64,000 nucleotides of DNA from Asaia bogorensis (GTDB lineage: Bacteria; Pseudomonadota; Alphaproteobacteria; Reyranellales; Reyranellaceae): contig CALRZP010000018.1 in the NCBI GenBank assembly GCA_943372655.1, positions 29,094-93,093 of the forward strand, written 5' to 3'. Position numbers and translations under genes: made by a program. The notes beneath the pieces are model-generated. The model saw only the letters and a list, made by a program, of their open reading frames with translations. It made no database searches and was not told the origin of the DNA. Position 1 is the stretch's first letter. Each line of letters opens with the position of its first letter. Positions 4,609 through 35,994 of this stretch are shown piece after piece.

Positions 4609-4734
4609 CTTCCCCTTTGCGGGCTCCGCAAAGGGGAAGTGCCCTCGTCTTACGAGGGCGATGGGGTCATGACCCCTCCGGCCAAAAGGCGCTGTAAACA
4701 GCGCCGGGGCCACCTCCCCATTTGAATGGGGAGG
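4609..4734. repeat. Hairpin-array repeat, family C (copy 1)
   Basis: String of hairpins: cttcccctttgcgg..ccgcaaaggggaag, ccctcgtcttacgaggg, ggcc..ggcc, cctccccatttgaatggggagg. Same modules in reverse orientation at 27465..27584. Confidence 0.8.
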
Positions 4735-14985: not shown

Positions 14986-15086
14986 GTCATCCTGAGCGCA
15001 GCGAAGGATCTCGCGCCCGACCGGGACTAGCTATCGCCAACTGTGTCTGATCGCTCGGTGAAGTCCTTCGCTGCGCTCAGGACGAC
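14986..15086. repeat. TIR-hairpin repeat, family A (copy 1)
   Basis: gtcatcctgagcgcagcgaagga ... tccttcgctgcgctcaggacgac inverted termini around a variable core. Ends 17 nt before the GMC start codon. Confidence 0.85.
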
Positions 15087-15102
15087 AAGAGGGAGAATAA
15101 AA

Positions 15103-18032: not shown

Positions 18033-18044
18033 ATCGGCTCCATT

Positions 18045-18133
18045 GTCATCCTGAGCGCAGCGAAGGATCTCACCGAACGATCAGGCAAGTCCTATGCGGC
18101 TGGCGCAAGGTCCTTCGCTGCGCTCAGGACGAC
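18045..18133. repeat. TIR-hairpin repeat, family A (copy 2)
   Basis: Same termini as 14986..15086 (gtcatcctgagcgcagcgaaggatc / ggtccttcgctgcgctcaggacgac). Fills the gap between the two enolase-superfamily genes. Confidence 0.85.
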
Positions 18134-18138
18134 AGAGA

Positions 18139-21352: not shown

Positions 21353-22069
21353 TCAAACCGAAAGATATTGTTCGCGGAGGGAGTCGTTGGCCGCCAGCTC
21401 GGCCATGGAACCGCCGAAGCGGATCTGGCCCTTCTCGATGATGTAGGCGCGGTCGGCGACGCCCAGCGCGAAATGCAGGTTCTGTTCGCACAAAATGACC
21501 GACACGCCCTCGCCCTTCAGCGCCCGGATGGAATTGGCCATCTCCTCGACGATGATAGGGGCCAGTCCCTCCGACGGCTCGTCGAGCAGGACGCAGCTCG
21601 GATTGCCCATCAGGGTCCGGGCAATGGTGAGCATCTGCTGCTCGCCGCCGGACATGCGCCCGCCCGGCCGCTCGCGCATGCGGGCGAGATTGGGGAACAG
21701 CGCGAAGAGCTTGTCTTCCGTCCAGAGCGGAACGCCGGCCCGCGCCGCCTGGCGTCCGACTTCGAGATTCTCCATCACCGACAGCTCGGTGAAGATGCGC
21801 CGCTCCTCGGGCACGTAACCCAGGCCGAGACGCGCAATACGGTACGGCGCCAGGCGCTCGATGCGCTGGCCGGCGAAGCTCACCTCGCCGCGGGTCGGCG
21901 GCACCAGGCCCATGATCGCCTTCATCGCCGTCGACTTGCCCGCGCCGTTGCGGCCCAGCAGGGCCACGACCTCGCCAGCACGCACCTCCAGCGAAATGCC
22001 GTGCAGGATATGGGCGCGGCCGTAGAAGGCGTGCAGGTCCTTCACCTCGAGCATCGGTGGCGCCGTCAA
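21353..22069 (-). CDS. ABC transporter ATP-binding protein (LivF-like)
   Basis: Walker A GRNGAGKST, signature SGGEQQML, Walker B LLDEPS. The start is either the TTG at 22069 (TTGA overlap with the upstream stop) or the ATG at 22054. Confidence 0.85.
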   Translation of the reverse strand: MTAPPMLEVKDLHAFYGRAHILHGISLEVRAGEVVALLGRNGAGKSTAMKAIMGLVPPTRGEVSFAGQRIERLAPYRIARLGLGYVPEERRIFTELSVMENLEVGRQAARAGVPLWTEDKLFALFPNLARMRERPGGRMSGGEQQMLTIARTLMGNPSCVLLDEPSEGLAPIIVEEMANSIRALKGEGVSVILCEQNLHFALGVADRAYIIEKGQIRFGGSMAELAANDSLREQYLSV

Positions 22070-22815
22070 TGCGCGCTCCCGAGATAGACCGCGCGCACGT
22101 TGGGGTTGGCGCGCACTTCGGGCGGCGTGCCGCCGGCGATGAGCACGCCGCGGTCGAGCACGATGATTCGGTCGGCCTGGGTGAAGACCACGTCCATGTC
22201 ATGCTCAGTGAACAGGACCGCGATGTTGCGCGCCCGGGCCAGCCGCGCCGTCAGCTCCATCAGCGCGACCCTCTCCTTGGGCGCCATGCCGGCGGTCGGC
22301 TCGTCCATGAGGAGGAGGCGCGGTTCGTTGGCCAGTGCGATGGCGAGCTCGACCCGCTTCAGGTCGCCATAGGCCAGCACGCCGCAGGTCCGCTCCGCCT
22401 GGTCGAGCATGCCGACCTGGTCGAGCAGCGCATCGGCTTCGGCAGCGAACGCCGCGCCAAAGCGCGACAGCAGCGAGCGCAGCCGGCCGGCATGGGAATA
22501 GAGCGCCATCTGCACATTCTCGCGGACGCTGAGCGAGGCGAAGGTGGCGGTGATCTGGAAGGTGCGGCCGACGCCCAGTCGCCAGATGGCGCGCGGACGG
22601 AGGCCCACGATGTCGCGGCCCTCGAGGCGCACGATGCCGGAGTCGGGCGTCAGTTGGCCGTTCAGCATGTTGAAGCAGGTGCTCTTGCCCGCCCCGTTCG
22701 GCCCGATCAGCGCCAGCATCTCGCCGGCCGAGACGGCGAAGGAGACGTCGGCCACGGCCTGGACGCCGCCGAAGGCCTTGTGCAGCCCTTCGACCTGGAG
22801 GATCGCGTGGCTCAT
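22066..22815 (-). CDS. ABC transporter ATP-binding protein (LivG-like)
   Basis: Trimmed to MSHAILQVEGLHKAFGG. Walker A GPNGAGKST, Walker B LLMDEPTAG. The ATG overlaps the permease stop (ATGA at 22812-22815). Confidence 0.9.
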   Translation of the reverse strand: MSHAILQVEGLHKAFGGVQAVADVSFAVSAGEMLALIGPNGAGKSTCFNMLNGQLTPDSGIVRLEGRDIVGLRPRAIWRLGVGRTFQITATFASLSVRENVQMALYSHAGRLRSLLSRFGAAFAAEADALLDQVGMLDQAERTCGVLAYGDLKRVELAIALANEPRLLLMDEPTAGMAPKERVALMELTARLARARNIAVLFTEHDMDVVFTQADRIIVLDRGVLIAGGTPPEVRANPNVRAVYLGSAH

Positions 22816-24686
22816 GCCCGCTGCTCCCGCCAGCGCGCGACCAACGCCTTCAGGCCGCCGACGAGTCCTTGCGGGAACAGCAGCACGATCAGCAGGATCA
22901 CGCCGCCCATCACGGCGCGCCAGAATTCGGTGTTGCGGGCCACGACGTCGCGCAGCCAGGTGAAGATCGCCGCGCCGACCACCGGACCGGTCAGGGTTTC
23001 GACACCACCCAGCAGCACCATGATGAGCCCATCGGTCGACTGCGCGATCGAGATGCTGGACGGCGAGATGCTGCCCTTGGAGAAGGCGTAGACCGCGCCC
23101 GCGAGACCGGCCAGCGCCCCGACCAGCACGAAGGCCGCCCACTGGAAGCCGCGCAGGTCGATGCCGATCGCCTCGGCGCGCAGCGGCGAATCGCGGCCGG
23201 CCCGCAGGGCATAGCCGAAGGGCGAGAACAGCACGCGCCACAGGAAGACGATGCCGGCGCCGCACAGGACGAGCGCGAGATAGTAATAGGTCGTCTTGTC
23301 GGCGAGCCACGGCGACGGCCAGACGCCGAACACACCGTTGCTGCCGCCCGTCATCGAATCCCACTGGAAGACGATCGACCAGCTGATCTGCGCGAAGGCG
23401 AGCGTCAGCATGGCGAGGTAGACGCCCGACAGGCGCACGCAGAACCAGCCGTAGACGATGGCGAAGGCGCCAGCGACCAGCGGCGCCAGCAGGAGCGCGG
23501 CTTCCATTGGCAGGCCGAAGCGCTTCATCAGCAGGCCCGCCGCATAGGCGCCGATGCCGAAATAGGCGGCGTGGCCGAACGAAACCATGCCGGCCGGCCC
23601 CATGATGAAGTGGAGGGAGACGGAGAACAGCGCGAAGCAGACGATGTCGGTCAGCAGGATCGTGGTGTAGCGATCGGCGGCCAGCGGCACGAGGGCGAGC
23701 AGCGCCAGCCAGACGAGCGCGAATGTCCAGGACGGCACCTGCAGTCGCGGCGCCGGTTCGGCCGCCCGCTGCGCGGCCTGCGGCTTGCCCAGCAGCCCGA
23801 AGGGCCGCACGACCAGCACCAGCGCCATGATCAGGAACTCGACCACCAGCGTGAGCTTGGAGAAGGAAACCTCGAAGCCGAACCAGGTCACGGTGCCGAT
23901 GCCGATGCAGAAGGCCTTGGCGACGCCGATGATGATGGCGGCCAGGAAGGCGCCACCGATGCTGCCCAGCCCGCCCACCACCGTCACAACGAACGCGTCT
24001 GCGATGATGGCGAGGTCAAGTTCGAGATTGGCCGGCTCGCGCGGGATCTGCAGCGCGCCGCCCAGCCCTGCGAGGACGGAGCCCACGAAGAAAACGGAGG
24101 TGAAGAGCTTGGCCTGGTCGACGCCCAGCGCGCCCACCATCTCGCGGTCCTGCGTCGCCGCCCGCACCAACGCGCCCCAGCGCGTTCGCGTCAGCAGCAG
24201 CCAGATGGCCCCCAGCACGACCGGGCCGATGGCGATCAGCACCAGGTCGTAGGCCGGAATGCGCCGCCCCATGATCTCGACCGCCATAGAAAGACCGGGC
24301 GCACGCGGCCCGACCAGATCCTCGGCGCCCCAGGTGAAGAGTGCGATGTCCTTGATCACCAGCACGACCGCGAAGGTCGCCAGCAGCTGGAACAGCTCCG
24401 GCGCGCGATAGATGCGCCGCAGGATCAGCACCTCGATCAGGATGCCGACCAGGCCCACCGCGAGCGCCGACAGCACGACGGCGCCCCAGAAGCCGAGCGG
24501 CGTCCGACCGAAGAACTCGATCAGCGAATAGGCGCCGTAGAGCCCCAGCATGTAGAGCGAGCCGTGCGCGAAATTCACGATCCGCGTGACGCCGAAGATC
24601 AGCGACAGGCCGGCGGACACCAGGAACAGCGACGCGGCAGCCGCCAGCCCGTTCAGCAGCTGGATGAGGATGGAAGCGAGAGTCAC
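22812..24686 (-). CDS. Fused branched-chain-amino-acid-type ABC permease (LivH-like + LivM-like)
   Basis: 624-aa polytopic protein. The N-terminal half resembles LivH (..INFAHGSLYMLG..) and the C-terminal half resembles LivM (..VSFGHAAYFGIGAY..). GTG start. Confidence 0.8.
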   Translation of the reverse strand: MTLASILIQLLNGLAAAASLFLVSAGLSLIFGVTRIVNFAHGSLYMLGLYGAYSLIEFFGRTPLGFWGAVVLSALAVGLVGILIEVLILRRIYRAPELFQLLATFAVVLVIKDIALFTWGAEDLVGPRAPGLSMAVEIMGRRIPAYDLVLIAIGPVVLGAIWLLLTRTRWGALVRAATQDREMVGALGVDQAKLFTSVFFVGSVLAGLGGALQIPREPANLELDLAIIADAFVVTVVGGLGSIGGAFLAAIIIGVAKAFCIGIGTVTWFGFEVSFSKLTLVVEFLIMALVLVVRPFGLLGKPQAAQRAAEPAPRLQVPSWTFALVWLALLALVPLAADRYTTILLTDIVCFALFSVSLHFIMGPAGMVSFGHAAYFGIGAYAAGLLMKRFGLPMEAALLLAPLVAGAFAIVYGWFCVRLSGVYLAMLTLAFAQISWSIVFQWDSMTGGSNGVFGVWPSPWLADKTTYYYLALVLCGAGIVFLWRVLFSPFGYALRAGRDSPLRAEAIGIDLRGFQWAAFVLVGALAGLAGAVYAFSKGSISPSSISIAQSTDGLIMVLLGGVETLTGPVVGAAIFTWLRDVVARNTEFWRAVMGGVILLIVLLFPQGLVGGLKALVARWREQRA

Positions 24687-24787: not shown

Positions 24788-25993
24788 TCAGTTCTTCGGC
24801 CGCATCTTCTGGACGTCGGCGTCGCTCGGCAGGGCGTCCCTGCCGTCGACGAAACGCCAGTTCTTCATGTAGCCCTTGCCGTCCTTCACGCCGATCTGGC
24901 CGACATAGGCGCCCATGGTCGACTGATGGTCGATCGGCCGGTACTCGATCATGCCGAAGGGCGTGATCAGCGTGAGGCCTTTCATCGCCGCGACGAGCTT
25001 CTCCTGGTCGAGCGAGCCCGCCTTCTTGATCGCCTCGGCCGCCGACATCACGGTCGCGTAACCGACCACCGAACCCAGCCGCGGATAGTCCTTGAACTTG
25101 GCCTGGTAGGCGTTGAGGAACTTGGTGTGCTCGGGCGTCTTGAGCTCGCTCCACGGATAGCCGGTGACGTACCAGCCGTCGGGCGACTCCTCCTTCAGCG
25201 GATCGAGATACTCGGGCTCGCCGGCCAGCAGATTGAAGACCTCCACGCCCTTGAACAGGCCACGGGTCTGGCCCTCGCGCACGAACTTGGCGAGGTCGGG
25301 CCCGAACAGCGAGGAGAAGATCGCGTCGGGCTTGGCGTCGGCCAGGGCTTGCGCCACGGCGCCCGCATCGATCTTGCCCAGCGGCGTCGCCTGCTCGGCG
25401 ACGAATTCGACATCGGGCTGCTTCTCCTTCAGGAGCTTCTTGAAGGCGGCCGTCGCCGACTGGCCGTACTCATAGTTCGGATAGACGATCGCCCAGCGCT
25501 TCTTCTTCAGCTTGACGGCATCGGGAATGAGCATCGCCGTCTGCATGTAGGTCGAGGTGCGCAGGCGGAACGTGTAGGCATTGCCCTGGTCCCAGACGAT
25601 CTTGTCGGTCAGCGGCTCGGCGGCGATGAACAGGACCTTGCGCTGCTTGGCGAAGTCGGCGACGGCGAGGCCGACATTCGACGGGAAGGTGCCGATCAGG
25701 AACGCGGCGCCCTCGCGGCTCAGCAGCTCCTCGGCGACGCGCACGGCATCGCCGGGATTGCCGTTGTCGTCGCGACTCACGACCTCGATCTTGCGGCCGA
25801 GCACGCCGCCGGCCGCGTTGACCTCTTCCACCGCCAGCTCGATGCCCTTCTTGTAGGGTTCGAGGAAGGCCGGGAAGACCTTGTAGCTGTTGAGTTCGCC
25901 GATCTTGATCGGTGCCTGTGCGGCAGCCGGTCCGACGAGCGACAGCGCCACGAGCGCGGCGGTGCCGGCAAGCAGGCGATTGCGGGTCAGCAT
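24788..25993 (-). CDS. ABC transporter substrate-binding protein (Leu/Ile/Val-binding-protein family)
   Basis: Signal peptide ..LVGPAAAQA after a GGAGGGGGA SD. IKIGELNSY..AVEEVNAAGGVLGRKIEVV pattern of the Peripla_BP_6 family. Confidence 0.9.
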   Translation of the reverse strand: MLTRNRLLAGTAALVALSLVGPAAAQAPIKIGELNSYKVFPAFLEPYKKGIELAVEEVNAAGGVLGRKIEVVSRDDNGNPGDAVRVAEELLSREGAAFLIGTFPSNVGLAVADFAKQRKVLFIAAEPLTDKIVWDQGNAYTFRLRTSTYMQTAMLIPDAVKLKKKRWAIVYPNYEYGQSATAAFKKLLKEKQPDVEFVAEQATPLGKIDAGAVAQALADAKPDAIFSSLFGPDLAKFVREGQTRGLFKGVEVFNLLAGEPEYLDPLKEESPDGWYVTGYPWSELKTPEHTKFLNAYQAKFKDYPRLGSVVGYATVMSAAEAIKKAGSLDQEKLVAAMKGLTLITPFGMIEYRPIDHQSTMGAYVGQIGVKDGKGYMKNWRFVDGRDALPSDADVQKMRPKN

Positions 25994-26069: not shown

Positions 26070-26450
26070 TCAGTCGGCAAAGCTCGACCGTGCCTGTATT
26101 CCCCAATGACCGTCCTGCAGGGTCACGATGTAGATCGTCTCGAAGACGCCGAGCAGCGAGCCATCCTCGCGCCAGCGGCTGAACTTCACCTTGAGATGGA
26201 CCTTGTCGCGGCCGACATGGATCGGCGTGCGCTCGTCCCACTTGCTGTGATGCCAGCCGTCGCCGGCGCGGGCAACGAAGTCACCCAGCTTGTAGTCGCC
26301 GTGGTTGGGCCAGACGACGACCTTGCCGCCGGCCAGTCGCACATGCGGGAAATTGCAGGCGTCGTTGACGGCCGGCTCGTCGCCGCGATTGAGGCCGTCG
26401 ATATAGGCGTCCATCACCTTCAGGGCCGCGGCGAGCGCCTCGTCGTTCAT
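26070..26450 (-). CDS. NTF2/SnoaL-like fold protein
   Basis: 126 aa (MNDEALAAALKVMDAYIDGLNRGD..). The ATG overlaps the upstream stop (ATGA at 26447-26450). The 334-aa ORF in the track is a shadow extension. Confidence 0.6.
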   Translation of the reverse strand: MNDEALAAALKVMDAYIDGLNRGDEPAVNDACNFPHVRLAGGKVVVWPNHGDYKLGDFVARAGDGWHHSKWDERTPIHVGRDKVHLKVKFSRWREDGSLLGVFETIYIVTLQDGHWGIQARSSFAD

Positions 26451-27034
26451 CGTTGCCCGTCCCCCAGCTTGATCTCGGCAGGGGTCAGCCCGCCGACTCT
26501 TGCGTGAGGCCGGCCCCCGATCGAGGCGGCGACGATGAACACGATCTCGTCCGGACGCGGCCCATCGGGCACGCAGAACTCGATGGCATCGAAATGGCTG
26601 CGCACATAGGCCGCCGTCACGTGATGCAGCGGAATGTCGATGCGCGCACCGGCCGTCGCGACCTTCACGGTCGAGGGCACGATCGACTTGGCGCCGCCCA
26701 TGGCGTGGCGGATACCGAAGCCGCTGGGCTGGTGCCACAGCGCGGCATGTTCCAGCTCGCCGTTCAGTCCGACGATGGCGCCCTTGCCGTAGGCTTCCAG
26801 CTCGGAGCCCTGGGCACCCAGGATCTTCATCACCCGCTCGGTGAGATCGACCGCGAGCGGTTCCAGCGCCTTCATCATCGGCTGGATGTCGGCCACGTGG
26901 CGACCGGCATAGGGATTGGCGATGACGCTGCCGACCACGGCCTTCGTGACCGGGCGAGCGAGCGCCGGCCCGAAGTCGTGGAGAGTCTCCTCGACCGTCG
27001 CCACGTATTTCCGCACCTTCACCAGATCGCTCAT
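26447..27034 (-). CDS. Amino acid synthesis family protein (DUF1185 / AA_synth)
   Basis: 195 aa (MSDLVKVRKYVATVEETLHDFG..). Recalled as the AA_synth family that co-occurs with UPF0280 and Hnr-like genes. ATGA overlap at 27031-27034. Confidence 0.65.
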   Translation of the reverse strand: MSDLVKVRKYVATVEETLHDFGPALARPVTKAVVGSVIANPYAGRHVADIQPMMKALEPLAVDLTERVMKILGAQGSELEAYGKGAIVGLNGELEHAALWHQPSGFGIRHAMGGAKSIVPSTVKVATAGARIDIPLHHVTAAYVRSHFDAIEFCVPDGPRPDEIVFIVAASIGGRPHARVGGLTPAEIKLGDGQR

Positions 27035-28014
27035 CCCGCCTCCGACAGAGCAAGCGGCGTGCCGCCCGCTTCAATTCTCCATTGTCCGCACAACGACAAG
27101 GCCGCGCTGTCGATCAGACCGCAGAGCCTCAGCCGCCGCGCTTCCGCCGCGCCGCGGTCAAGGGCTGCCGCCACGATCGCCGGCGGCAAGTCACCGACCG
27201 CCACCGTCACGAGCAGCTCGCCGAGATCGCTGTCCGGATCGAGCGAGCACGCGGGCCGACGCTCGATGGAAGAATGGTCGGCATTCACTTCGTTGGCGAT
27301 CATGGTCGCCGCGGCATCGGCCACCGCCGCGGTGGCGGCGAGCACGGTCACGGACTCCGCGATACCCAGCGAGAAGGACCGCCCGCCCCGGCCCGAGGTC
27401 GCGATGCCTCGCACCGGCCGCTCATGCGTGAGAAGAGCCACGCCATCCAGTGTCTTGCCGCCTGCCTCCCCATTCAAATGGGGAGGTGTCGACGTAACCG
27501 TCGACGGAGGGGTCGGACTATGCTGCGCCGCGCATGACCCCATCGCCCCGTATGACGGGGCACTTCCCCATCTGAATGGGGAAGAGGCTGAATCCGCGAC
27601 AATGCCGGCGCGCAGCGAATGCCCCGGCGTCAGATGGATCGCGATGTCGCCGCCATCGTTCACATAGGCCTTGGTGAGCGTGCGGCCACGCACGAGCGCC
27701 TGCAGCATCTCGTCGGCGACGGCGCCGGCAACGGCGGCCATCGGCGTGATGAAGGCGGCGCGATGCGGCCATACGGCTTCGGCCATGCGGCGGGCCGCAG
27801 GACCCTGCAGCAGCGGATAGGCCTCTCCGACCGGCCGGCGCAGTACCTGAAGTTCGCCGACCAGGGTCGGCAGGATATCGCCGAAGCGTTCCATTGCCTG
27901 ACCATAGGCACGCTCGACTTCGTCTGCCGCCCCGAAGGCCTCGACGATGAGATCGATCGGACCGTGCTGCAGGTGCAGCCGTCCGTCATCGAGGCGGGCG
28001 GCGACGGCGCTCAT
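27031..28014 (-). CDS. UPF0280 family protein (ApbE-like fold) carrying an in-frame repeat insertion
   Basis: N-terminus ..DGRLHLQHGPIDLIVEAFG.. is typical of UPF0280. ATGA overlap at 28011-28014. Residues SSPFRWGS...PHLNGEAGG are encoded by the family C repeat. Confidence 0.65.
   Translation of the reverse strand: MSAVAARLDDGRLHLQHGPIDLIVEAFGAADEVERAYGQAMERFGDILPTLVGELQVLRRPVGEAYPLLQGPAARRMAEAVWPHRAAFITPMAAVAGAVADEMLQALVRGRTLTKAYVNDGGDIAIHLTPGHSLRAGIVADSASSPFRWGSAPSYGAMGSCAAQHSPTPPSTVTSTPPHLNGEAGGKTLDGVALLTHERPVRGIATSGRGGRSFSLGIAESVTVLAATAAVADAAATMIANEVNADHSSIERRPACSLDPDSDLGELLVTVAVGDLPPAIVAAALDRGAAEARRLRLCGLIDSAALSLCGQWRIEAGGTPLALSEAG
27465..27584. repeat. Hairpin-array repeat, family C (copy 2), inside a CDS
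   Basis: cctccccattcaaatggggagg .. tcgacgtaaccgtcga .. ccccgtatgacgggg .. cttccccatctgaatggggaag. Shares modules with 4609..4734 in reverse orientation. About 120 nt, so it preserves the frame. Confidence 0.75.
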
Positions 28015-29441
28015 TCGATCCGCACCTTGTGCCGCGCGATCACGTCTTCCAGCGTGACCGCGCGCGAGGCGTAGCCGCCCAACGCCACGTAGTCGTCGGC
28101 GCGCAGGGTGAACTCGATGGGCGCGACCAGTGCCGGCGTCGGCACATAGCCGAAGGATTTCTCCGGCATGCGCGCCACGTCGACCATCAGGGTGATGCCG
28201 CCGCCCGGCCAGATGAAGGCCGGTGCGCCGCCCAGCGTGACCTTAGTGAGCGTGTCGCGCACCGAGCGCGTGAGCCGCACCGGGTTCTCGGTGACGCCGG
28301 CGCGCAGCGAACCGCCGGCGCCGGCCATGAACAGCACGGTGCAGAGCGCGGGCTCGCAATTCTCGGCGATGCGCTCAACGACATGGCGCACCGGCGGGGG
28401 CATCTCGGCGGGCTGCGGTTTCAAGTCACCGTCGAGCGTGAACCAGGCCGAATGCTCGCCGGTCGTCGAGACCATCAGCAGCTTGAGCCCCGGCCAGGCC
28501 TGCTTGGGATCGATCCTCTCGATGATCTCCAGCGGGTCGCTGACATTGGTGCCGCCCCAGCCCAGCCCCGGCTCGGCCACCTGGAAATAGCGGCCCGGCG
28601 TCGAGCGGCGGCCGCGCACGCGGATGCCGGCCGGCTTCATGTCGAGGAAGGCGCCGCCCTGATGCTCGCTCAGCACGCCGGTGATGTGGTCGTCGACCAC
28701 GATCACCTCGTCGACATGGTCCTTCCATTGCGGCGCGAACATGCCGATCGCCGCGGAGCCGCAGCCGACCCGCATGCGCTCCTCGAGCGTGCCGTTCACC
28801 ACCGGCGGCCTGTCGGCCTGCACCACCACCGTCGAGCCGCCGTCGATGGTGAGTTCGACGGCCTCGCGATTGCACAGCGCCAGCAGGGCATCGCAGGTGA
28901 CGACGCCCTCCTTCTTGCTGCCGCCGGTGAGGTGGTGGACGCCGCCCAGCGACAGCATCTGCGAGCCGTACTCGGCCGTGGTGACATGGCCCACCGCCTC
29001 GCCCTTCACCCTCACCGTCGCCTGCTCGGGCCCGAGATAGCGGTCGGTGTCGATCTTCACCTTGACGCCGCAGTAGCTGAAGATCCCCTCGGTCACGACC
29101 GTCACCATGTCGACGCCTTCATGCTTCGACGAGACGATGAAGGGCGCGGGCTTGTAGTCGGGATAGGTCGTGGTGGCGCCGATGCCGGTGACGAAGGCGC
29201 CCTCGCCTTTGCCCAGTTCGCCGCGCCACGCGTCGCTGCCTTCGATGAAGGCGACGCGGGCGAGATCGGGCTTGGCCAGCAGCACCAGCGGATCGACCCG
29301 CACCAGAGCGCCGTTCTCGTTGGCGTAGCGGTCGCAGGCGCCGGCGCGGCCGGGGCGGATGCGGCACAGGACGGGACAGGCGTCGCAGCGCACGATGCCG
29401 GCGCTGCGTTCGGCCTCCGAGAGCGAGATGTCGTCGCTCAT
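28011..29441 (-). CDS. 6-hydroxynicotinate reductase (Hnr)-like iron-sulfur protein
   Basis: 476 aa from MSDDISLSEAERSAGIVRCDACPVLCRIRPGRAGACDRY (Cys cluster). Family call is from memory of Hnr-like annotations. The ATG overlaps the upstream stop (ATGA at 29438-29441). Confidence 0.6.
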   Translation of the reverse strand: MSDDISLSEAERSAGIVRCDACPVLCRIRPGRAGACDRYANENGALVRVDPLVLLAKPDLARVAFIEGSDAWRGELGKGEGAFVTGIGATTTYPDYKPAPFIVSSKHEGVDMVTVVTEGIFSYCGVKVKIDTDRYLGPEQATVRVKGEAVGHVTTAEYGSQMLSLGGVHHLTGGSKKEGVVTCDALLALCNREAVELTIDGGSTVVVQADRPPVVNGTLEERMRVGCGSAAIGMFAPQWKDHVDEVIVVDDHITGVLSEHQGGAFLDMKPAGIRVRGRRSTPGRYFQVAEPGLGWGGTNVSDPLEIIERIDPKQAWPGLKLLMVSTTGEHSAWFTLDGDLKPQPAEMPPPVRHVVERIAENCEPALCTVLFMAGAGGSLRAGVTENPVRLTRSVRDTLTKVTLGGAPAFIWPGGGITLMVDVARMPEKSFGYVPTPALVAPIEFTLRADDYVALGGYASRAVTLEDVIARHKVRIE

Positions 29442-32146
29442 GCTCGCTTCCTTTCCAGGGCGACGATGGCCTCGCGCAGGCGATGCGGCAGCAGCGGGAC
29501 GCGCTGGACGCGCACGCCGGTCGCGTGATGGACCGCGCCCAGGATGGCCGGCGCCGTCGGCACCAGCGCGGGCTCGCCAATACCCTTGGCGCCCGAGGGA
29601 CCGAGCGGCTCGCGATCCTCGATCAGGAGGCACTCGATCTCCGGCACGTCGCCCACGGTCGGAATGAGATAGTCGTGCAGGTTCTCGGTGCGTCCGGGCA
29701 GGTATTCCTCCATCAGCGCGAGACCCAGCCCCTGCGCCACGCCGCCCTGGATCTGACCCTCCACGAGGGTCGGGTTGATCGCCCGGCCGACATCGTGCGC
29801 GGCCACGATGCGCAAGACCTTCACCGTGCCCAGTTCGACATCGACCTCGACCTCGGCCAGTTGCGCGGCGAAAGCATAGGTCGCATAGGGCACGCCCTGC
29901 CCGTCGGCATCGAGCGGCGTGGTCGGCGGGTCGAACACCCCCTCGCCCATCAGCGGCCCTGATGTGGCGAGATCGATCGTCCGGACCTCGCCGCCATCGC
30001 GCACGGAAAGTGTTGCACCTTCGAGCGACAGGATCGCGTCGGGACCGGCATTGGCCAGCCGCAGGATCTGCTGGCGCAGATCCTGTCCCGCCTTCTCCGC
30101 CGCCTTGCCCGACACGAAAGTCTGGCGCGAGGCTGAGGTCTTGCCGGCATCGGCGGTGAGATCGGTGTCGCCCGTCACCAGCGTGAACTGATCGGCCGGC
30201 AGCCCCACCGCATCGGCGGCGATCTGTACCATGATGGTGTTGCTGCCCTGTCCGATGTCGAGCGCGCCGCTGTAGAGCGTCAGCGTCCCGGCCGGCGATA
30301 GACCCACGCGCATGCGTGAGGGATTGGACATCGAAGTATTGCCGATCCCGTACCACATGCAGCCGATGCCGATGCCGCGGCGGCGCACACCGCCCGTCGC
30401 GTTGAACGCCGCAATTTCCTCGTGCGCCTTTCGCCAATGCGGTCGCAGCGCGTCGAGGCACTGCGCGAGCCCGGCGGAATGGGCGAGCGTCTGGCCAGTT
30501 GCCGTGGTGTCGCCGGCGCGCAAGGCATTGCGATGGCGGAACTCCAGCCGGTCGATGCCCAGCCTGTCTGCGAGTTCATCCATCATCGCCTCGTGGGCGA
30601 TGGCGGCCTGCGGCACGCCGAAGCCGCGGAAGGCGCCGGCCGGCGGTCCGTTGGTGAAATAGGCCTCGCCCCAGGTCCGCACGTTGGGAATGGCATAAGG
30701 CCCCATCGCATGCACCGGCACGCGATTGGCGACGGTCGGGCCCCAGGATGCGTAGGCGCCGGTGTCAAAGAGGGCAGTCACGTCGCAGGCAAGCAGCTTG
30801 CCGTTGGCATCGCAGCCGAACCGCGCGCTCACGCGTGCCGGATGACGCTTGGTGCTGGCCGCCATGCTTTCGGGTCGCGTGTAGGCCAGCGCCACGGGGC
30901 GCCCCAGCGTCCAGGCCGCGATGGCGATCAGCGGCTGCACCGAGAGATCGAGCTTGCCGCCGAAGCCGCCGCCGCAGGCGGTCGGCACGATGCGTACGGC
31001 CTCCGGCTTCAGTCGCATCAGGTTGGCGATCTCGTCGCGGTCCATATAGGGCGTCTGGGTGGTGGCGTGGATTTCGATCCGGTCGCCGACCCGGCGCGCC
31101 CAGCCGGCCTCGGGTTCGATGTAGGCATGCTCGACGAACGCCGTCTCGAACGTGCCTTCGGCCACGGCGGCGCAATCCTCGAACGCGGCCATCGCGTCGC
31201 CACGCTTCACCCCGCCCTTCAGCAGCAGGTTGCCCGGTCTGTCGGCCTGCACCAGCGCCGCATCCTCCGCCATCGCGGCATCGACGCCGAACAGGGGCGG
31301 CTCGGGCATCCAGGTGATCGGCACCTCATCGTCACGGATCGCCAGCACCTCGGCGTGTTCGCCGACCAGTGCCACGACGGCCTCGCCGCGATAGCGGACC
31401 TGTCCGTCCGCGAGGACCGGCTGATCCTTGATATCGGGATAGATGCCGTAGCCGTTGAACGGCACGTCCGCCGCCGTCAGCACCGCCGCGAGACGCCGGC
31501 GCAGCGGTTCGAGATCGCCCAGTTCGAAGCGTGCCCGTGCGTGCGGCGAGCGGATGACGCGGATCCAGAGTGCGTCCTTGGGAATGGCATCGGCACCGAA
31601 CAGGTCGCGGCCCGTGACCTTGGCCGGACCGTCGACCCGCACGATTCGCGACCCGACGGCTCCACCGGCCGCCGGTGCGGTCGCGGGCGCCGGCGCGACG
31701 ACATCCATCACCGCATCGACGATCTTGCCGTAGCCGGTACAGCGGCAGAGCACGCCCCCCAGGAAATCCTCGACCTCGGCCCGGCTCGGCTTGGTTTTCC
31801 GGCGCACGAGTTCCTGCGCGGCCATCAGCATGCCGGGCGTGCAGATGCCGCACTGGGCGGCGCCATGATCGAGAAACGATTGCTGGAGCGCGGCCATCGT
31901 GTCCGGGCCGGCTTCAAGACCTTCGACCGTCTCGACGCTCCTTCCCTCGATCTGGCCCATGGCGACGAGACAGGAGCAGACCTGGCGGCCATCGAGCAGA
32001 ACCGTGCAGGCGCCGCAATCGCCCGCATCGCAGCCAATCTTGGTCCCGGTAACGCCGAGGTCATCGCGCAGGGCCGACGCCAGTCGCGTGACCGGCGCGC
32101 CGTCCCAGCTTGCTGCGCGTCCGTTGAGTGTGAATTCGAGCTTCAT
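29438..32146 (-). CDS. Xanthine-dehydrogenase-family enzyme, fused [2Fe-2S] and molybdopterin-binding subunits
   Basis: N-terminus CDAGDCGACTV..C.C and CGICTPGM..CRCTGY (two 2Fe-2S sites), followed by a Moco domain with GGGFGGK. 902 aa. ATGA overlap at 32143-32146. Confidence 0.9.
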   Translation of the reverse strand: MKLEFTLNGRAASWDGAPVTRLASALRDDLGVTGTKIGCDAGDCGACTVLLDGRQVCSCLVAMGQIEGRSVETVEGLEAGPDTMAALQQSFLDHGAAQCGICTPGMLMAAQELVRRKTKPSRAEVEDFLGGVLCRCTGYGKIVDAVMDVVAPAPATAPAAGGAVGSRIVRVDGPAKVTGRDLFGADAIPKDALWIRVIRSPHARARFELGDLEPLRRRLAAVLTAADVPFNGYGIYPDIKDQPVLADGQVRYRGEAVVALVGEHAEVLAIRDDEVPITWMPEPPLFGVDAAMAEDAALVQADRPGNLLLKGGVKRGDAMAAFEDCAAVAEGTFETAFVEHAYIEPEAGWARRVGDRIEIHATTQTPYMDRDEIANLMRLKPEAVRIVPTACGGGFGGKLDLSVQPLIAIAAWTLGRPVALAYTRPESMAASTKRHPARVSARFGCDANGKLLACDVTALFDTGAYASWGPTVANRVPVHAMGPYAIPNVRTWGEAYFTNGPPAGAFRGFGVPQAAIAHEAMMDELADRLGIDRLEFRHRNALRAGDTTATGQTLAHSAGLAQCLDALRPHWRKAHEEIAAFNATGGVRRRGIGIGCMWYGIGNTSMSNPSRMRVGLSPAGTLTLYSGALDIGQGSNTIMVQIAADAVGLPADQFTLVTGDTDLTADAGKTSASRQTFVSGKAAEKAGQDLRQQILRLANAGPDAILSLEGATLSVRDGGEVRTIDLATSGPLMGEGVFDPPTTPLDADGQGVPYATYAFAAQLAEVEVDVELGTVKVLRIVAAHDVGRAINPTLVEGQIQGGVAQGLGLALMEEYLPGRTENLHDYLIPTVGDVPEIECLLIEDREPLGPSGAKGIGEPALVPTAPAILGAVHHATGVRVQRVPLLPHRLREAIVALERKRA

Positions 32147-32973
32147 GCGGCGACCTTCGACAACAGCCGGCGCAGCAGGACCATGGCCACCTCGCGGCGA
32201 TAGCCTGCACTGCCGCGCACATCGTCGATCGGCGACAGCGGCGCCAGATGGGATGGAGCGACCCGTTCGCCGAGACGCGCATCGACCGCCGCGCCAACCA
32301 GCGCCTGCTCCAGGGCCGGCAAGCGTTGCGCAACGGGAGAGCAGGCCCCCACGGCAACGCGCGCCGCCTTGACCTTTCCGTCCTCGACTTCGACCAAGGT
32401 CGAAGCCATGGCGATCGAGATCACGAGGTAGCGCCGCGCCCCGAGCTTCAGGAAGGCGCTCCTCGCCTCGGCTTGCGGGCGCGGTACATGGAGCGCCACG
32501 ACCAGCTCGCCGGGCTGCCGCGCCGTCATACGGACACCGGTGATGAAGGAGGCGAGCGGGAGCCGACGCGCGCCTTCGCGGCTCGCGAGCTCGACCTCCG
32601 CGTCGAGTGCCAGCAGGGCCGGCACGCCATCGGCCGCGGGCGAGGCGTTGCAGATGTTCCCCGCGATCGTTCCGCTATTCTGGATCTGACGGCCGCCGAC
32701 CTCGCGCGCCGCCTGCTTCAGCCCATCGAACAGCGGCGGCAGGTCCACTTCAACCAGTTCGCTCCACGTCGTGGTGGCGCCCAGCCGCCAGCCGGCGGGT
32801 GTCTCGGAAGTACCGCGCAGAGCGGCGATTCCCGCGATGTCGAGCACGTCTTCGGTGACGGCACGGCCGACCCGCGCCGGATAGAAGTCGGTGCCACCGG
32901 CCAGCACCGTGAAAGGCCGGGTCAGTGCCTGGAGCGCCTCTTCAAGGCCACGGGGTCGGAGATAGTCGCCCAT
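32143..32973 (-). CDS. Xanthine-dehydrogenase-family FAD-binding subunit (CoxM-like)
   Basis: 276 aa. ..LAGGTDFYP.. and ..IQNSGTIAGNICNASPAAD.. motifs of the FAD_binding_5 / CO dehydrogenase flavoprotein family. Confidence 0.9.
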   Translation of the reverse strand: MGDYLRPRGLEEALQALTRPFTVLAGGTDFYPARVGRAVTEDVLDIAGIAALRGTSETPAGWRLGATTTWSELVEVDLPPLFDGLKQAAREVGGRQIQNSGTIAGNICNASPAADGVPALLALDAEVELASREGARRLPLASFITGVRMTARQPGELVVALHVPRPQAEARSAFLKLGARRYLVISIAMASTLVEVEDGKVKAARVAVGACSPVAQRLPALEQALVGAAVDARLGERVAPSHLAPLSPIDDVRGSAGYRREVAMVLLRRLLSKVAA

Positions 32974-33031
32974 ATCGTTCGTGTACGTACGATGACACAG
33001 GCCACGTGCGAGTCAAACGAATGAGTCGGAT

Positions 33032-33505
33032 TCAGATGATCCGCGACAGAAGATCGAGGAGCTGCTTCTGCTCCTGGGCATTGAGCGGCTTCAGGGTCTC
33101 GCGCGAAACCGCCGGACCGTTCACCAGCAGCCGGTTGACCAGCCGCTGCCCCTCGGTCGTCAGGCTGAGCAGTGTGCGGCGCGCATCGCCCGGGTCGGGC
33201 CGTGAATCGACGAGGCCGCGTTCCTTCAACCGGCGCACCACGCCCTGCATCGTGGCCTTGTCCATGCCGACGAGACGGCCCAGCAGGTTCTGCGACAGCT
33301 CGGTATACTCGTCGAGCTTCGCCAGGCTCGAATACTGGGTCGGCGTGATATTGGGATCGCCGATACCGGTCTGGAAGATGGCACTCGCGCGCTGATGGGC
33401 GCGTCGCAGCAGGTAGCCGATCTGATCTTCGATGCGATAGGGCCTGGATGCCGCAGTCGACGCAGTCTTCGACTCAAGCTGCTTCTTTGCAACGTTGCTT
33501 CGCAT
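33032..33505 (-). CDS. MarR family transcriptional regulator
   Basis: Trimmed to MRSNVAKKQ. Winged-helix core ..ITPTQYSSLAKL..LSQNLLGRLVGMDKATMQGVVRRLKERGLV..D..D.R. Confidence 0.85.
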   Translation of the reverse strand: MRSNVAKKQLESKTASTAASRPYRIEDQIGYLLRRAHQRASAIFQTGIGDPNITPTQYSSLAKLDEYTELSQNLLGRLVGMDKATMQGVVRRLKERGLVDSRPDPGDARRTLLSLTTEGQRLVNRLLVNGPAVSRETLKPLNAQEQKQLLDLLSRII

Positions 33506-33812: not shown

Positions 33813-35012
33813 ATGCCCGGCGCGCTCGAAGGCATCAGGATCGTCGACCTCACCAACATCATCCTCGGCCCCTATGGCACGATGCTGCTGGCCGACCAGG
33901 GCGCCGACGTCATCAAGGTCGAAGCACCGGAAGGCGATGCGGTGCGTCACATCGGCAAGCCCGGCAAGACCCCGGGCATGGGACCGACCTACCTGTATGT
34001 GAACCGCAACAAGCGCTCGCTCTGCCTCGACCTCAAGAACAAGGACGCGCGTGCCGCCCTGCTCAAGGTCGTGGCGACCGCCGATGCCTTCGTCCATGCC
34101 TTGCGCCCCCAGGCCATCGAGGCGCTGGGTCTGGGCTACGAGGAGATCCGCAAGGTGAAGCCCGACATCGTCTATGTCGGCGCCTATGGCTATTCGGCAG
34201 AGGGTCCTTACGGAAAACTGCCGGCGTACGACGATGCCATCCAGGCCCGCTTCGGTATCGCCGACCTGATGGGCCGCGCCGCCGGCGACGACGTCCCGCG
34301 CTATCCTCCGACCATCATTGCCGACAAGACGGTCGGTCTCACCTTCGCTTTCTCGACCCTTTCAGCCCTGATGCATCGTCAACGCACCGGCGAGGGCCAG
34401 TTCGTCGAGGTGCCGATGTTCGAGACCATGTCGGCCTGGCTGATGGTCGAGCATCTGTGGGAGCGGACCTTCAGCGACGAGGGCGAGGTCGGCTACACCC
34501 GCCTGCTCGCCCGCACCCGCAAGCCCTATCGTACCCTGGACGGCTGGATGGCGATCCTTCCCTACAACGACAAGCACTGGCGCAACTTCTTCGAGCTGAT
34601 CGGCCGGTCGGAGGTGCTGCAGGACCCGCGCTATTCGACCATGAACGCCCGCTCGATGCACATCGGGGACATGTACGCCATGGTCGAGGCGCTCGCGCCC
34701 TCGAAGACCACGGCCGAATGGGTCAGGCTGCTCGACCAGGCGCAAATCCCGAACGCCCCGGTGTCGAAGCCCGCCGACCTTTTCGAGGATCCGCACCTCG
34801 TCTGGCGCAAGCTCTTCAAGAAGTATCCGCACCCGTCGGAGGGCGAGATCATGATGGTCGAGCCGCCGATGACCATGAGCCGGACACCGCCCGCCATCCG
34901 CACCATGGCGCCCCTGCAAGGACAGGACTCGCGCGCCGTGCTGGCCGAGGCCGGCGTCAGCGCCATCGACATCGAAGCCCTGAAGACGTCGGGCGCGCTT
35001 ATCGAGCCGTAG
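33813..35012 (+). CDS. CaiB/BaiF family (class III) CoA-transferase
   Basis: N-terminus LEGIRIVDLTNIILGPYGTMLLADQGADVIKVE is typical of family III CoA-transferases. 399 aa. Confidence 0.9.
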   Translation: MPGALEGIRIVDLTNIILGPYGTMLLADQGADVIKVEAPEGDAVRHIGKPGKTPGMGPTYLYVNRNKRSLCLDLKNKDARAALLKVVATADAFVHALRPQAIEALGLGYEEIRKVKPDIVYVGAYGYSAEGPYGKLPAYDDAIQARFGIADLMGRAAGDDVPRYPPTIIADKTVGLTFAFSTLSALMHRQRTGEGQFVEVPMFETMSAWLMVEHLWERTFSDEGEVGYTRLLARTRKPYRTLDGWMAILPYNDKHWRNFFELIGRSEVLQDPRYSTMNARSMHIGDMYAMVEALAPSKTTAEWVRLLDQAQIPNAPVSKPADLFEDPHLVWRKLFKKYPHPSEGEIMMVEPPMTMSRTPPAIRTMAPLQGQDSRAVLAEAGVSAIDIEALKTSGALIEP

Positions 35013-35994
35013 CTTCGCCGGCCATTTCCACGGCCAGCTCGGCGGCGGCAAGATCCTCGAGCGCCGCGCCGACCGACTTGAACAGCGTGATCGAACTGGT
35101 GTCACCGGCCGCACGGCCGGTCCGCAGTCCACGCGCCAGCTCGAACAGGTCGGCGAGCACGTCGGGCTCCCCGATGGCGCCGCTGGCGATCGGCTGGACG
35201 ATGTCGCCGCCCTCCTTCAGCGCGCCGGCACGGGTATCGACATAGAGGCGGGCCCGCTGCACGGCCCGATCGTCGCTCTCGCGCATCTGCGGCGTGAAGG
35301 CGCCCACCAGGTCGACATGCTGCCCGTCGCGCAACCAGTCACCCTCGACCAGGGGAGTCGTGGCGAGCGTGGCGCAGGAGATGATGTCGGCATCCCGAAC
35401 GGCGGCCTCGCGGTCGCCGACGGCACGGACGGTCACGGGACGGCCGATCGCCGCCGGCAGGGAAACGGAGAGTCTCGCGGCAAGCGCTTCGGCCTGGGCG
35501 GCCGTGCGTCCCCAGATCGCCACGTCCTCGATGGGCCGGACCTTGGCATGGACGCGGATCAGCTCGGGCGCCAGCGCACCGGTGCCGATCATCAGCAACC
35601 GTGCGGCGTCGGGCCGCGACAGGTAGCGCGCGGCGAGACCCGAGGCGCAGGCGGTGCGCCGCTTGGTCAGCATCGTGCCATCGAGCAGCGCCAAGGTCGC
35701 GCCCGTGCTGCCGTCGAGCAGCAGGTACTGGCCGTAGATCGAGGGCAGCGACCGCTTTCCGTTGTCGGGGAACACCGTCACGACCTTGACGCCGACGCGG
35801 CCCGAGGCTCCTGTGGTCCAGGCCGGCATGAGCAACAGCATCGCATCGGCCGAACCGGGACCGAGCGGCTCCCGGATCGGATGATGATGCCTCACCGGCA
35901 TCTCGCAGCCCGCCCGGAACAGGCCGTCGAGCCGGTCGATCAGCGCGAGGTCGTCCAGGGCGGCGTCGATCTCGGCCGCCGACAGGACCTTCAT
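34999..35994 (-). CDS. Ornithine cyclodeaminase / mu-crystallin family protein
   Basis: 331 aa. ..LLLMPAW.. and Rossmann motif MIGTGALA are typical of the family. The 3' end overlaps the convergent CoA-transferase gene by 14 nt. Confidence 0.85.
   Translation of the reverse strand: MKVLSAAEIDAALDDLALIDRLDGLFRAGCEMPVRHHHPIREPLGPGSADAMLLLMPAWTTGASGRVGVKVVTVFPDNGKRSLPSIYGQYLLLDGSTGATLALLDGTMLTKRRTACASGLAARYLSRPDAARLLMIGTGALAPELIRVHAKVRPIEDVAIWGRTAAQAEALAARLSVSLPAAIGRPVTVRAVGDREAAVRDADIISCATLATTPLVEGDWLRDGQHVDLVGAFTPQMRESDDRAVQRARLYVDTRAGALKEGGDIVQPIASGAIGEPDVLADLFELARGLRTGRAAGDTSSITLFKSVGAALEDLAAAELAVEMAGEATAR

Follow-up and report, generated by a model that had tools for sequence, protein, structure and literature searches.

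To our knowledge, Eubacterium barkeri and Azorhizobium are the only organisms in which the breakdown of nicotinate by ring reduction has a biochemical foundation. In 2006, Alhapel et al. reportedly recognized in nine Proteobacteria the genes for the first three enzymes of the E. barkeri pathway, namely nicotinate dehydrogenase (Ndh), 6-hydroxynicotinate reductase (Hnr), and enamidase. Here, we analyzed a 64,000-nucleotide stretch of contig CALRZP010000018.1 (assembly GCA_943372655.1), referred to as the window, which carries six tightly packed minus-strand genes encoding a FAD-binding subunit, a fused [2Fe-2S]-molybdenum cofactor (Moco) subunit, an Hnr-like protein, and members of the UPF0280, DUF1185, and NTF2-like families. 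The described proteobacterial cluster comprises Azorhizobium caulinodans AZC_2790-2804, Bradyrhizobium japonicum blr3818-3830, Rhodopseudomonas palustris RPB_1658-1671, and the corresponding genes of strain SG-6C (PMC3511419, after Alhapel 2006). This strain grows on nicotinate and on 6-hydroxynicotinate, and its Hnr homologue shares 42% identity with that of E. barkeri (Shettigar et al., 2012; PMC3511419).

An initial annotation of the window, which had proposed a nicotinate route through 1,4,5,6-tetrahydro-6-oxonicotinate (THON), had regarded the cluster as "unassigned". While the proposed route gained support from homology and synteny, the cluster itself turned out to match the published proteobacterial nicotinate cluster (Shettigar 2012, PMC3511419), whose two conserved unknown proteins, judged by homology, are UPF0280 and DUF1185. 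We thus consider it fairly probable that the window holds the Reyranella version of the proteobacterial THON-route cluster, in a form lacking enamidase. The locus is unusual only in missing the known ring-opening enzyme and in carrying half of an ATP-driven lactam-opening enzyme, HyuA; what is new is the alternative between enamidase and HyuA(B) together with testable roles for UPF0280 and DUF1185, and not a new pathway.

Candidate hydroxylase and reductase genes of the cluster

All six open reading frames (ORFs) were open throughout (26070-32973), each with an ATG start and a TGA stop, and ATGA was found on the coding strand at every one of the five junctions (32143-46, 29438-41, 28011-14, 27031-34, and 26447-50), in agreement with the initial annotation, which had described six minus-strand genes chained by five 4-nt overlaps. 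Similar overlaps of 4-8 nt were observed in distant alphaproteobacterial orthologous loci, including L048, in which the FAD/Moco, Hnr/UPF0280, and tandem DUF1185 genes overlap by 4-8 nt. Since the overlaps recur at such distance, the coupling is not a local accident. The six family assignments made at the outset were all borne out by Pfam, NCBIfam, or PDB matches, by homologue names, or by structure matches.

Hallmarks of the E. barkeri Ndh are a Se-containing active site and a Moco protein divided into L and M subunits. In the window, the Ndh domain set was complete, consisting of the FAD subunit, two [2Fe-2S] domains, and a Moco-binding domain; the L/M split was absent, as a single 902-aa chain spans S, L, and M and bears the GGGFGGK motif within ACGGGFGGKLD. 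The chains of E. barkeri nicotinate dehydrogenase (3HRD) tiled this protein end to end, chain D matching residues 3-150 (115 bits), chain A residues 164-568 (270 bits), and chain B residues 588-898 (229 bits), which gave 614 bits in sum as compared with 402 bits for the best single chain, that of a D. gigas-type aldehyde oxidoreductase. Neither the Moco nor the FAD protein reached any NCBIfam equivalog cut-off. On the basis of this domain correspondence, the 902-aa chain appears to be a candidate nicotinate 6-hydroxylase that combines NdhS, NdhL, and NdhM in one.

The 476-aa Hnr-like protein matched no Pfam or NCBIfam model. Its close and distant homologues, however, carry the name 6-hydroxynicotinate reductase in NCBI and JGI, so that the family call of the initial annotation for 28011..29441 was upheld. 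An exhaustive search yielded 1278 representatives of the family, and the protein could be aligned over its full length with ferredoxin-domain forms of ~510 aa at 37-44% identity. Near its N-terminus lies the motif C19-x2-C22-x3-C26-x9-C36, the four Cys residues of which were invariant in 17 diverse members. Two [4Fe-4S] clusters have been reported for the E. barkeri Hnr; a 2x[4Fe-4S] ferredoxin domain was absent from the window protein and from all 80 proteobacterial homologues compared here, which begin just before the four-Cys motif, and paired CxxCxxCxxxCP motifs were found only in the ~510-aa forms (e.g., P0126 and P0128). By sequence, the window protein is thus a member of the Hnr family devoid of a built-in ferredoxin module. 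It was 71% identical to the Afipia homologue of L060 and 95% identical to that of a Reyranella massiliensis 521 metagenome-assembled genome (MAG).

As to the supply of electrons, two Hnr members of ~970-980 aa, P0127 and P0134, contain a GltD-like NAD(P)H/FAD module, located mid-sequence in the former and fused N-terminally in the latter, and on these grounds look like self-sufficient enzymes. In five loci (L024, L032, L035, L041, and L053), Hnr has as neighbors the genes for both subunits, alpha and beta, of a 2-oxoacid:ferredoxin oxidoreductase, and in L024 and L032 they replace the FAD/Moco genes. These oxidoreductase neighbors hint at a continued need of the ferredoxin-less Hnr for a donor of low potential. 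The tight coupling of the Ndh and Hnr genes may reflect a direct hand-over of nicotinate-derived electrons to Hnr.

For the comparison of gene neighborhoods, loci were found with a 5-sequence Hnr alignment, the window genes were mapped on them, and the remaining ORFs were clustered de novo. More than 592 species have a homologue; the 80 loci considered are the best kept around Hnr homologues, all from Proteobacteria and with E. barkeri not among them, and 46 of these, having at least 9 kb on both sides, were taken as the full-flank set. Within this set, UPF0280 was present in 44 loci, the FAD and Moco genes in 40, DUF1185 in 33, the ABC transporter in 23, HyuA in 20, the enamidase-like gene in 14, HyuB in 12, and the NTF2-like gene in 4. 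The Moco gene immediately preceded Hnr in 57 of the 70 loci with enough flank, UPF0280 immediately followed it in 60 of 71, and the FAD-subunit gene stood upstream of Hnr in 61 of all 80. The FAD-Moco-Hnr-UPF0280 core is therefore nearly universal, and DUF1185 is frequent. The window shares its gene order with most of the 80 loci and with the cluster as published.

With regard to the substrate, nicotinamidase genes (NF008623, 179 and 175 bits against a cut-off of 174) were embedded in four loci, two of them of the HyuA type (L014 and L016, with the gene between Hnr and UPF0280) and two of the enamidase type (L026 and L047). Compared with the proteins of most enamidase or nicotinamidase loci, the window Hnr showed 65-74% and the window Moco protein 51-69% identity, and both were about equally similar to their counterparts in enamidase-type and HyuA-type loci. 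Because nicotinamidase accompanies both types, tying each to nicotinamide and nicotinate, and the similarity is about equal, these observations suggested that the two types share a substrate and differ in the ring-opening enzyme.

Enamidase, HyuA, and the uncharacterized families

A tblastn search of the whole 64-kb window with the 2VUN-like enamidase of L027 (E <= 1e-3) found no enamidase; the initial annotation had likewise read none in the operon. The enamidase-like family used here is truly orthologous to the E. barkeri enamidase (PDB 2VUN, E 2.5e-109, full length). It was present in 20 of the 80 loci and HyuA in 24, and the two were together in none (Fisher p = 5e-5 for the 46 full-flank loci and 4e-4 for all 80, uncorrected for phylogeny); HyuA is the only component anti-correlated with enamidase. 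A further family of 178 aa that appeared conserved ("c17") was dismissed as an artefact, being a shadow ORF opposite the enamidase strand.

The best NCBIfam match of the window HyuA was CapA, the caprolactamase alpha subunit (507 bits, below the cut-off of 1000), and its closest solved relatives were the N-methylhydantoinase 7hk5 (456 bits) and 6yra (384 bits), which is deposited as "5-oxoprolinase" and which we take to be the Pseudomonas jessenii caprolactamase. Both DxGGT motifs were intact (DVGGTFTD at residue 12 and DMGGTSTD at residue 286), and across 23 orthologues 229 columns were invariant, with no fixed differences from those HyuA proteins that have a HyuB neighbor. The window itself gave no match to HyuB (PF02538) in its 64 kb, the gene after HyuA being that of an enolase-superfamily dehydratase; since the window HyuA is intact, the simplest assumption is that HyuB is encoded elsewhere in the genome. 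HyuB follows HyuA in 14 other loci. In at least 11 loci the HyuA-HyuB pair adjoins the core, either directly after UPF0280 (L041, L053, L065, L071, and L075) or directly before the FAD gene (L039, L050, L057, L062, L070, and L079). The position of HyuA is kept in every Reyranella-clade locus with enough flank, in Desertibaculum, and in a betaproteobacterial MAG, while the gene that comes next varies.

Hydantoinase/oxoprolinase-type enzymes use ATP to open cyclic amides, a class to which THON, as a delta-lactam, belongs. Because the relatives of HyuA open cyclic amides and HyuA never stands with enamidase in the 80 loci, an ATP-dependent THON lactamase is the best candidate, and our best guess is that such an enzyme would carry out ring opening in the enamidase-less clusters.

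The initial annotation had placed UPF0280, DUF1185, and the NTF2-like protein "instead" of an enamidase, as candidates for new ring-opening or deamination steps. In fact, all 20 enamidase loci also hold UPF0280 or DUF1185, and among those with full flanks DUF1185 was found in 14 of 14, in many cases as two tandem copies, with UPF0280 present as well; these two families are thus not enamidase substitutes. The three families do not always stand together, nor is enamidase always missing, given enamidase in 20 and the NTF2-like gene in 7 of the 80 loci.

The homologue profile of UPF0280 matched PDB 2o34 (E 4.4e-11), and an hhalign comparison with E. coli Ftp/ApbE (E 5e-4, probability 30%) aligned the motifs GGD, ATSG, and ADAxxT. 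The Pfam ApbE model gave E values of 3.2 for the window protein and 1e-4 for the member in L082. Alhapel and co-workers are said to have described, in 2006, a covalent flavin in the E. barkeri Hnr. In view of this flavin and of the constant adjacency to Hnr, we propose that UPF0280 may be an ApbE-like factor that matures or flavinylates Hnr. The window gene is interrupted by an in-frame 138-nt insertion bounded by inverted palindromic hairpins, whose arms lie at 27467-27488 and 27561-27582; a further copy is located at 4713-4734 between convergent genes (0 expected by chance). None of the 31 homologues aligned has the insertion, nor do four closely related DNA sequences. It looks like an element of the repetitive extragenic palindrome/miniature inverted-repeat transposable element (REP/MITE) kind within a variable loop of UPF0280.

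DUF1185 matched PDB 3byq (E 2.4e-51) and 2qtp (E 1.8e-42), and was found in 49 of the 80 loci, though not in the close relative L004. The trigonelline pathway, according to what Perchat and colleagues are said to have reported in 2018, passes through a 2-formyl-dicarboxylate-type intermediate. TgnF, a DUF1185 homologue, is reported to stimulate a step of trigonelline breakdown, that of the downstream semialdehyde dehydrogenase (PMC7913881), and the fold of the family is Bacillus chorismate-mutase-like or YjgF-like (PMC2954203). By analogy, DUF1185 could be an accessory acting on enamine or 2-formyl-dicarboxylate products, which is speculative. A gene for a Rieske/VanA-type oxygenase, not present in the window, lies between DUF1185 and the transporter in seven loci (L029:13561-14727, L021, L048, L051, L055, L067, and L076), and could encode an N-demethylase through which a methylated pyridine, for instance trigonelline, would enter the pathway.

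The NTF2-like protein of 126 aa gave no Pfam, NCBIfam, or PDB sequence match. Its AlphaFold2 (AF2) model forms an alpha+beta cone, for which Foldseek returned 385 PDB matches at E <= 0.001 (probability 1.0); the top 50 listed were nearly all NTF2-like, SnoaL, ketosteroid-isomerase-like, or CaMKII-hub structures, with template modeling (TM) scores of 0.6-0.77. Among 5.8 billion proteins, the family has 457 homologues, and those few for which a source is named belong to Reyranella/Reyranellales or to unclassified alphaproteobacterial MAGs. All of the 7 loci with the gene are of the Reyranella clade, and it is absent from the close relatives L006 and L007. A protein restricted to Reyranellales and missing from close relatives does not fit an essential replacement of enamidase; it may be a clade-specific helper.

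A metagenome scan with a ferredoxin-type Hnr returned mostly generic 4Fe-4S ferredoxin matches, L082, L083, and L084 alone being real. In the anaerobe-type L082, a ferredoxin-domain Hnr is followed by UPF0280 (NF003322 195 bits, 30% identical to the window protein), DUF1185 (259 bits, 45% identical), and a gene of the 3-hydroxyisobutyrate-dehydrogenase family (Hgd-like), to which the E. barkeri 2-(hydroxymethyl)glutarate dehydrogenase belongs. Because the trio of Hnr, UPF0280, and DUF1185 also occurs here, it predates the split between the proteobacterial and anaerobe-type forms, and, judged from these sequences, it is independent of the later fate of 2-formylglutarate. L084 (metagenome contig Ga0209777_10000401) has its ferredoxin-domain Hnr gene in another context and no UPF0280, the neighbors being an ornithine-cyclodeaminase-family gene, a stand-alone Moco subunit, a TctCBA transporter, and a Peptidase_M19 dipeptidase; it may represent a different substrate or another solution to ring opening.

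Proposed route and its alternatives

In the proposed route, nicotinate would be imported by the ABC transporter of the leucine/isoleucine/valine (LIV) type encoded downstream, and would be converted to 6-hydroxynicotinate by the FAD and fused [2Fe-2S]-Moco subunits, as their homology to the E. barkeri Ndh indicates. The Hnr-like protein, whose covalent flavin UPF0280 would install, is predicted by homology to reduce 6-hydroxynicotinate to THON. The THON lactam would then be opened by an ATP-dependent lactamase of the caprolactamase/N-methylhydantoinase type, for which the co-occurrence data point to HyuA as the alpha-type component, with the beta component encoded elsewhere, while DUF1185 and the NTF2-like protein might play accessory parts, probably on the enamine or 2-formylglutarate products, which is speculative. 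The MarR-family regulator probably represses the unit via a conserved palindrome at the first start codon. A more inclusive proposal, namely that a HyuA lactamase with or without HyuB has displaced the metal-dependent enamidase in a large share of the proteobacterial THON clusters, that UPF0280 is the flavin transferase of Hnr, and that DUF1185 is a product handler shared with the trigonelline pathway, is put forward only tentatively.

A number of observations weigh against this interpretation. The nicotinate role of the Reyranella locus is predicted from sequence, and the link to the E. barkeri Hnr consists of database names and of the published identity value for its counterpart in SG-6C. 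For Hnr, the AF2 model was derived from a shallow alignment (26 sequences, at least 71% identical) and reached a predicted local distance difference test (pLDDT) score of only 53, with no flavin site discernible. In 1992, Kitts reportedly found the Azorhizobium nicotinate hydroxylase to be membrane-bound and cytochrome-linked, not an obvious match for the soluble-type enzyme of the window. HyuA stands without HyuB in the 64 kb, whereas its solved relatives are all A+B pairs or fusions, so that HyuA acting by itself as a lactamase would be unprecedented. The statistics of enamidase/HyuA exclusivity ignore kinship and rest on flanks limited to 10 kb, and neither gene was found in 12 full-flank loci. 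The similarity between UPF0280 and ApbE is weak, the profile matching 2o34 and no PDB ApbE structure, and the 46-codon insertion might inactivate the UPF0280 of the window.

Some of these points could also be accommodated if the same THON-route operon were served by an ordinary enamidase encoded elsewhere, HyuA being an unrelated neighbor or acting on some other lactam. An enamidase can indeed be unlinked, as it lies several kb off or on the opposite strand in, for example, L020, L032, L060, and L068; the 12 full-flank loci with neither gene and the lack of the usual B partner for the window HyuA are in line with this possibility. We nonetheless regard it as unlikely, because the two genes never coincide in the 80 loci, the place of HyuA is retained from the Reyranella clade to Desertibaculum and the betaproteobacterial MAG irrespective of the next gene, and HyuAB abuts UPF0280 or the FAD gene in other lineages. 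It is very improbable that the substrate is another N-heterocyclic acid and that the Hnr-like and Moco proteins are paralogues: the identities of the two proteins to those of most enamidase or nicotinamidase loci speak against it, as does the Afipia-type L060, which shares its lineage with SG-6C, a grower on nicotinate and 6-hydroxynicotinate. That alternative would nevertheless agree with the equivalog cut-offs missed by the Moco and FAD proteins, with Hnr-family members in other contexts such as L084 with its TctABC, Peptidase_M19, and ornithine-cyclodeaminase-family neighbors, and with a transporter whose ligand is only putatively nicotinate.

The proposal of the initial annotation, that the NTF2-like protein or DUF1185 is a new ring-opening or deaminating enzyme in place of enamidase, draws on SnoaL/polyketide-cyclase-type enzymes, for which cleavage of the 2,3,6-trihydroxypyridine C-N bond is reported in Rhodococcus and Arthrobacter (PMC9304392), on the confinement of the NTF2-like gene to a clade lacking both enamidase and HyuB, and, for DUF1185, on its chorismate-mutase/YjgF-like fold and the stimulatory effect of its homologue TgnF (PMC7913881). 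The presence and absence of the genes do not fit an essential replacement of enamidase, since DUF1185 accompanies enamidase in every full-flank enamidase locus and also occurs in L082, is missing from about one third of the HyuA loci and from L004, and since L006 and L007 keep the rest of the unit without the NTF2-like gene. We thus judge this proposal improbable, and retain the enamidase-less THON-route cluster with a HyuA-type lactamase as the preferred interpretation.

Extent of the unit and relation to known systems

The MarR gene was confirmed to lie 58 nt upstream of the first catabolic gene, as first annotated. As for the limits of the unit, the right-hand coordinates given initially were correct; the end at 26070 was not, as same-strand genes run on to 19303, so that the ABC transporter and the HyuA gene had been left out of the gene list. 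Below 26070, the successive junctions consist of a 76-nt gap, a 101-nt gap, two 4-nt overlaps, and a 4-nt gap. No intrinsic-terminator-like site was found by a terminator scan in any intergenic gap of the unit, and a sigma-70 promoter scan gave nothing useful in this GC-rich region. Taken jointly with the THON-route model, it is reasonably probable that the genes from MarR to HyuA (33505 down to 19303) form an operon-like unit of ~14 kb, of which the six coupled genes are the front part (Table 1).

In 34 of the 80 loci, those of the Reyranella clade and many others, a MarR homologue is placed likewise. Within the 58-nt gap between MarR and the FAD-subunit gene, a second element, TTTGACTC, lies ~20 nt upstream of the palindrome ATCGTACGTACACGAACGAT, and both were conserved in eight aligned Reyranella-clade intergenic regions. 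Orthologues of the periplasmic binding protein are inside the cluster in 34 of the 80 loci, and the LIV-type transporter of the published cluster was named "putative nicotinate ABC transporter" (PMC3511419). Between the binding-protein and permease genes, the gap holds a strong RNA stem-loop, for which 0 of 200 shuffles folded as well; it lacks a U-tract, occurs only once in the window, and may be an mRNA-stabilizing or attenuating element.

Table 1. Features of the cluster and its borders in the window, from right to left.
Feature	Coordinates	Strand	Properties
Family III CoA-transferase	33813..35012	+	PF02515 355 bits; divergent from MarR
MarR-family regulator	33032..33505	-	PF12802/PF01047, E ~1e-11
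Candidate operator	32974..32993	-	20-nt imperfect palindrome ATCGTACGTACACGAACGAT; abuts ATG of FAD-subunit gene
NdhF/CoxM-like FAD-binding subunit	32143..32973	-	276 aa; PF00941 137 bits, PF03450 68 bits
Fused 2x[2Fe-2S]+molybdopterin subunit	29438..32146	-	902 aa; Fer2, Fer2_2, Ald_Xan_dh_C, MoCoBD_1, MoCoBD_2
Hnr-like protein, candidate 6-hydroxynicotinate reductase	28011..29441	-	476 aa; homologue names; four-Cys motif
UPF0280 (ApbE-like)	27031..28014	-	327 aa; NF003322 350.8 bits (cut-off 290)
In-frame 138-nt insertion in UPF0280 gene	27458..27595		bounded by inverted 22-nt palindromic hairpins CCTCCCCATTCAAATGGGGAGG
DUF1185/AA_synth	26447..27034	-	195 aa; PF06684 224.8 bits (gathering 27), profile 1-175/175
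NTF2-like	26070..26450	-	126 aa; predicted fold, AF2 pLDDT 94.4, predicted TM score (pTM) 0.88
LIV/urea-type periplasmic substrate-binding protein	24788..25993	-	PF13458, 254 bits
Strong RNA stem-loop	24702..24779	-	binding-protein/permease gap; -51.1 kcal/mol, z-score -4.8
Fused LivH/LivM-type ABC permease	22812..24686	-	624 aa; PF02653 twice; UrtB/UrtC-like
ABC ATPase 1	22066..22815	-	PF00005 + PF12399; ATG at 22815 overlaps permease stop
ABC ATPase 2	21353..22069	-	PF00005; 4-nt overlap with ATPase 1
HyuA, caprolactamase-alpha-like	19303..21348	-	681 aa; PF05378, PF01968, PF19278; last conserved gene of unit

To the right of MarR, the CoA-transferase has among its best NCBIfam matches succinate-glutarate CoA-transferase (177 bits, below the cut-off of 750), and its linkage to the cluster is confined to the Reyranella clade (86-93% identity); by analogy with the Azorhizobium pathway reportedly described by Kitts in 1992, it might tentatively be the glutarate CoA-transferase of the lower pathway. 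Its gene is convergent with that of a Pyr2C/Pip2C reductase (34999-35994, minus strand; NF004793, 392 bits against a cut-off of 322), their ends overlapping by 14 nt, and the two accompany the nicotinate cluster only in the Reyranella clade. On the other side, 24 nt past HyuA, two tandem genes of the enolase superfamily, of the acid-sugar dehydratase type, were found (16893-18032 and 18139-19278, minus strand). The first one after HyuA keeps its position only in L002, L008, and L011, and the pair probably belongs to another pathway. Membership in the unit was rejected for these enolase-superfamily genes (16893-19278), for a GMC oxidoreductase (15043-16701), and for the Pyr2C/Pip2C reductase, all of which either travel with the cluster in its closest relatives alone or do not travel with it.

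The overall picture of the pathway is unchanged by these data, and their value is incremental. The proteobacterial gene assignments for the THON route rest on homology, and the published cluster now appears in at least two mutually exclusive forms, with enamidase or with HyuA/HyuAB. If the lactamase form is true, it would represent a non-orthologous displacement at the nitrogen-releasing step and would provide a new substrate for a family of biocatalytic interest in lactam hydrolysis; if the more inclusive proposal holds in all its parts, two orphan families would obtain their first functions, along with a new ring-opening step. The near-universal pairing of Hnr with UPF0280 offers, in any case, an experimental handle on a widespread function-less family. 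A 2026 paper on vitamin B3 and root bacteria was set aside as a precedent, as it covers the Pseudomonas-type nicAB cluster, which is a different route.

Among the known systems, the ApbE/Ftp FAD:protein FMN transferases resemble UPF0280 in the core motifs GGD, ATSG, and ADAxxT, to which its profile aligns; in contrast to them, UPF0280 forms a separate family (2o34) of weak similarity, Hnr shows no evident ApbE target motif, and the transferase activity is hypothetical. To TgnF of the Acinetobacter baylyi trigonelline pathway, the window DUF1185 was likened by Pfam family and by its place in a pyridine-carboxylate catabolic operon. HyuA shares with CapAB (6yra), N-methylhydantoinase (7hk5), and 5-oxoprolinase all three A-type domains and both DxGGT motifs, although the window, unlike the CapAB family, encodes the alpha/A component only, and the CapA score falls short of its cut-off. 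We know of no report of activity on THON within the hydantoinase/oxoprolinase family.

With the E. barkeri genes (NdhFSLM, Hnr, and enamidase; 3HRD and 2VUN), the window has in common the proposed chemistry of the first two steps, the Hnr family with its four-Cys motif, and the tiling of its Moco protein by NdhS, NdhL, and NdhM. It differs from them in its fused Moco subunits, in an Hnr without 2x[4Fe-4S], in the absence of enamidase and of B12-dependent lower-pathway genes, and in its aerobic host; the succession of UPF0280 and DUF1185 after Hnr is shared with the anaerobe-type L082. From the published proteobacterial cluster, the window is set apart by the absence of enamidase throughout its 64 kb, by the extra NTF2-like gene, by HyuA at the end of the unit, and by a single DUF1185 gene as opposed to the tandem pair common in enamidase loci. 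In its FAD and fused FeS-Moco hydroxylase, Hnr, LIV-type ABC transporter, two conserved unknown proteins, MarR-type regulator, and tight gene coupling, it is like that cluster.

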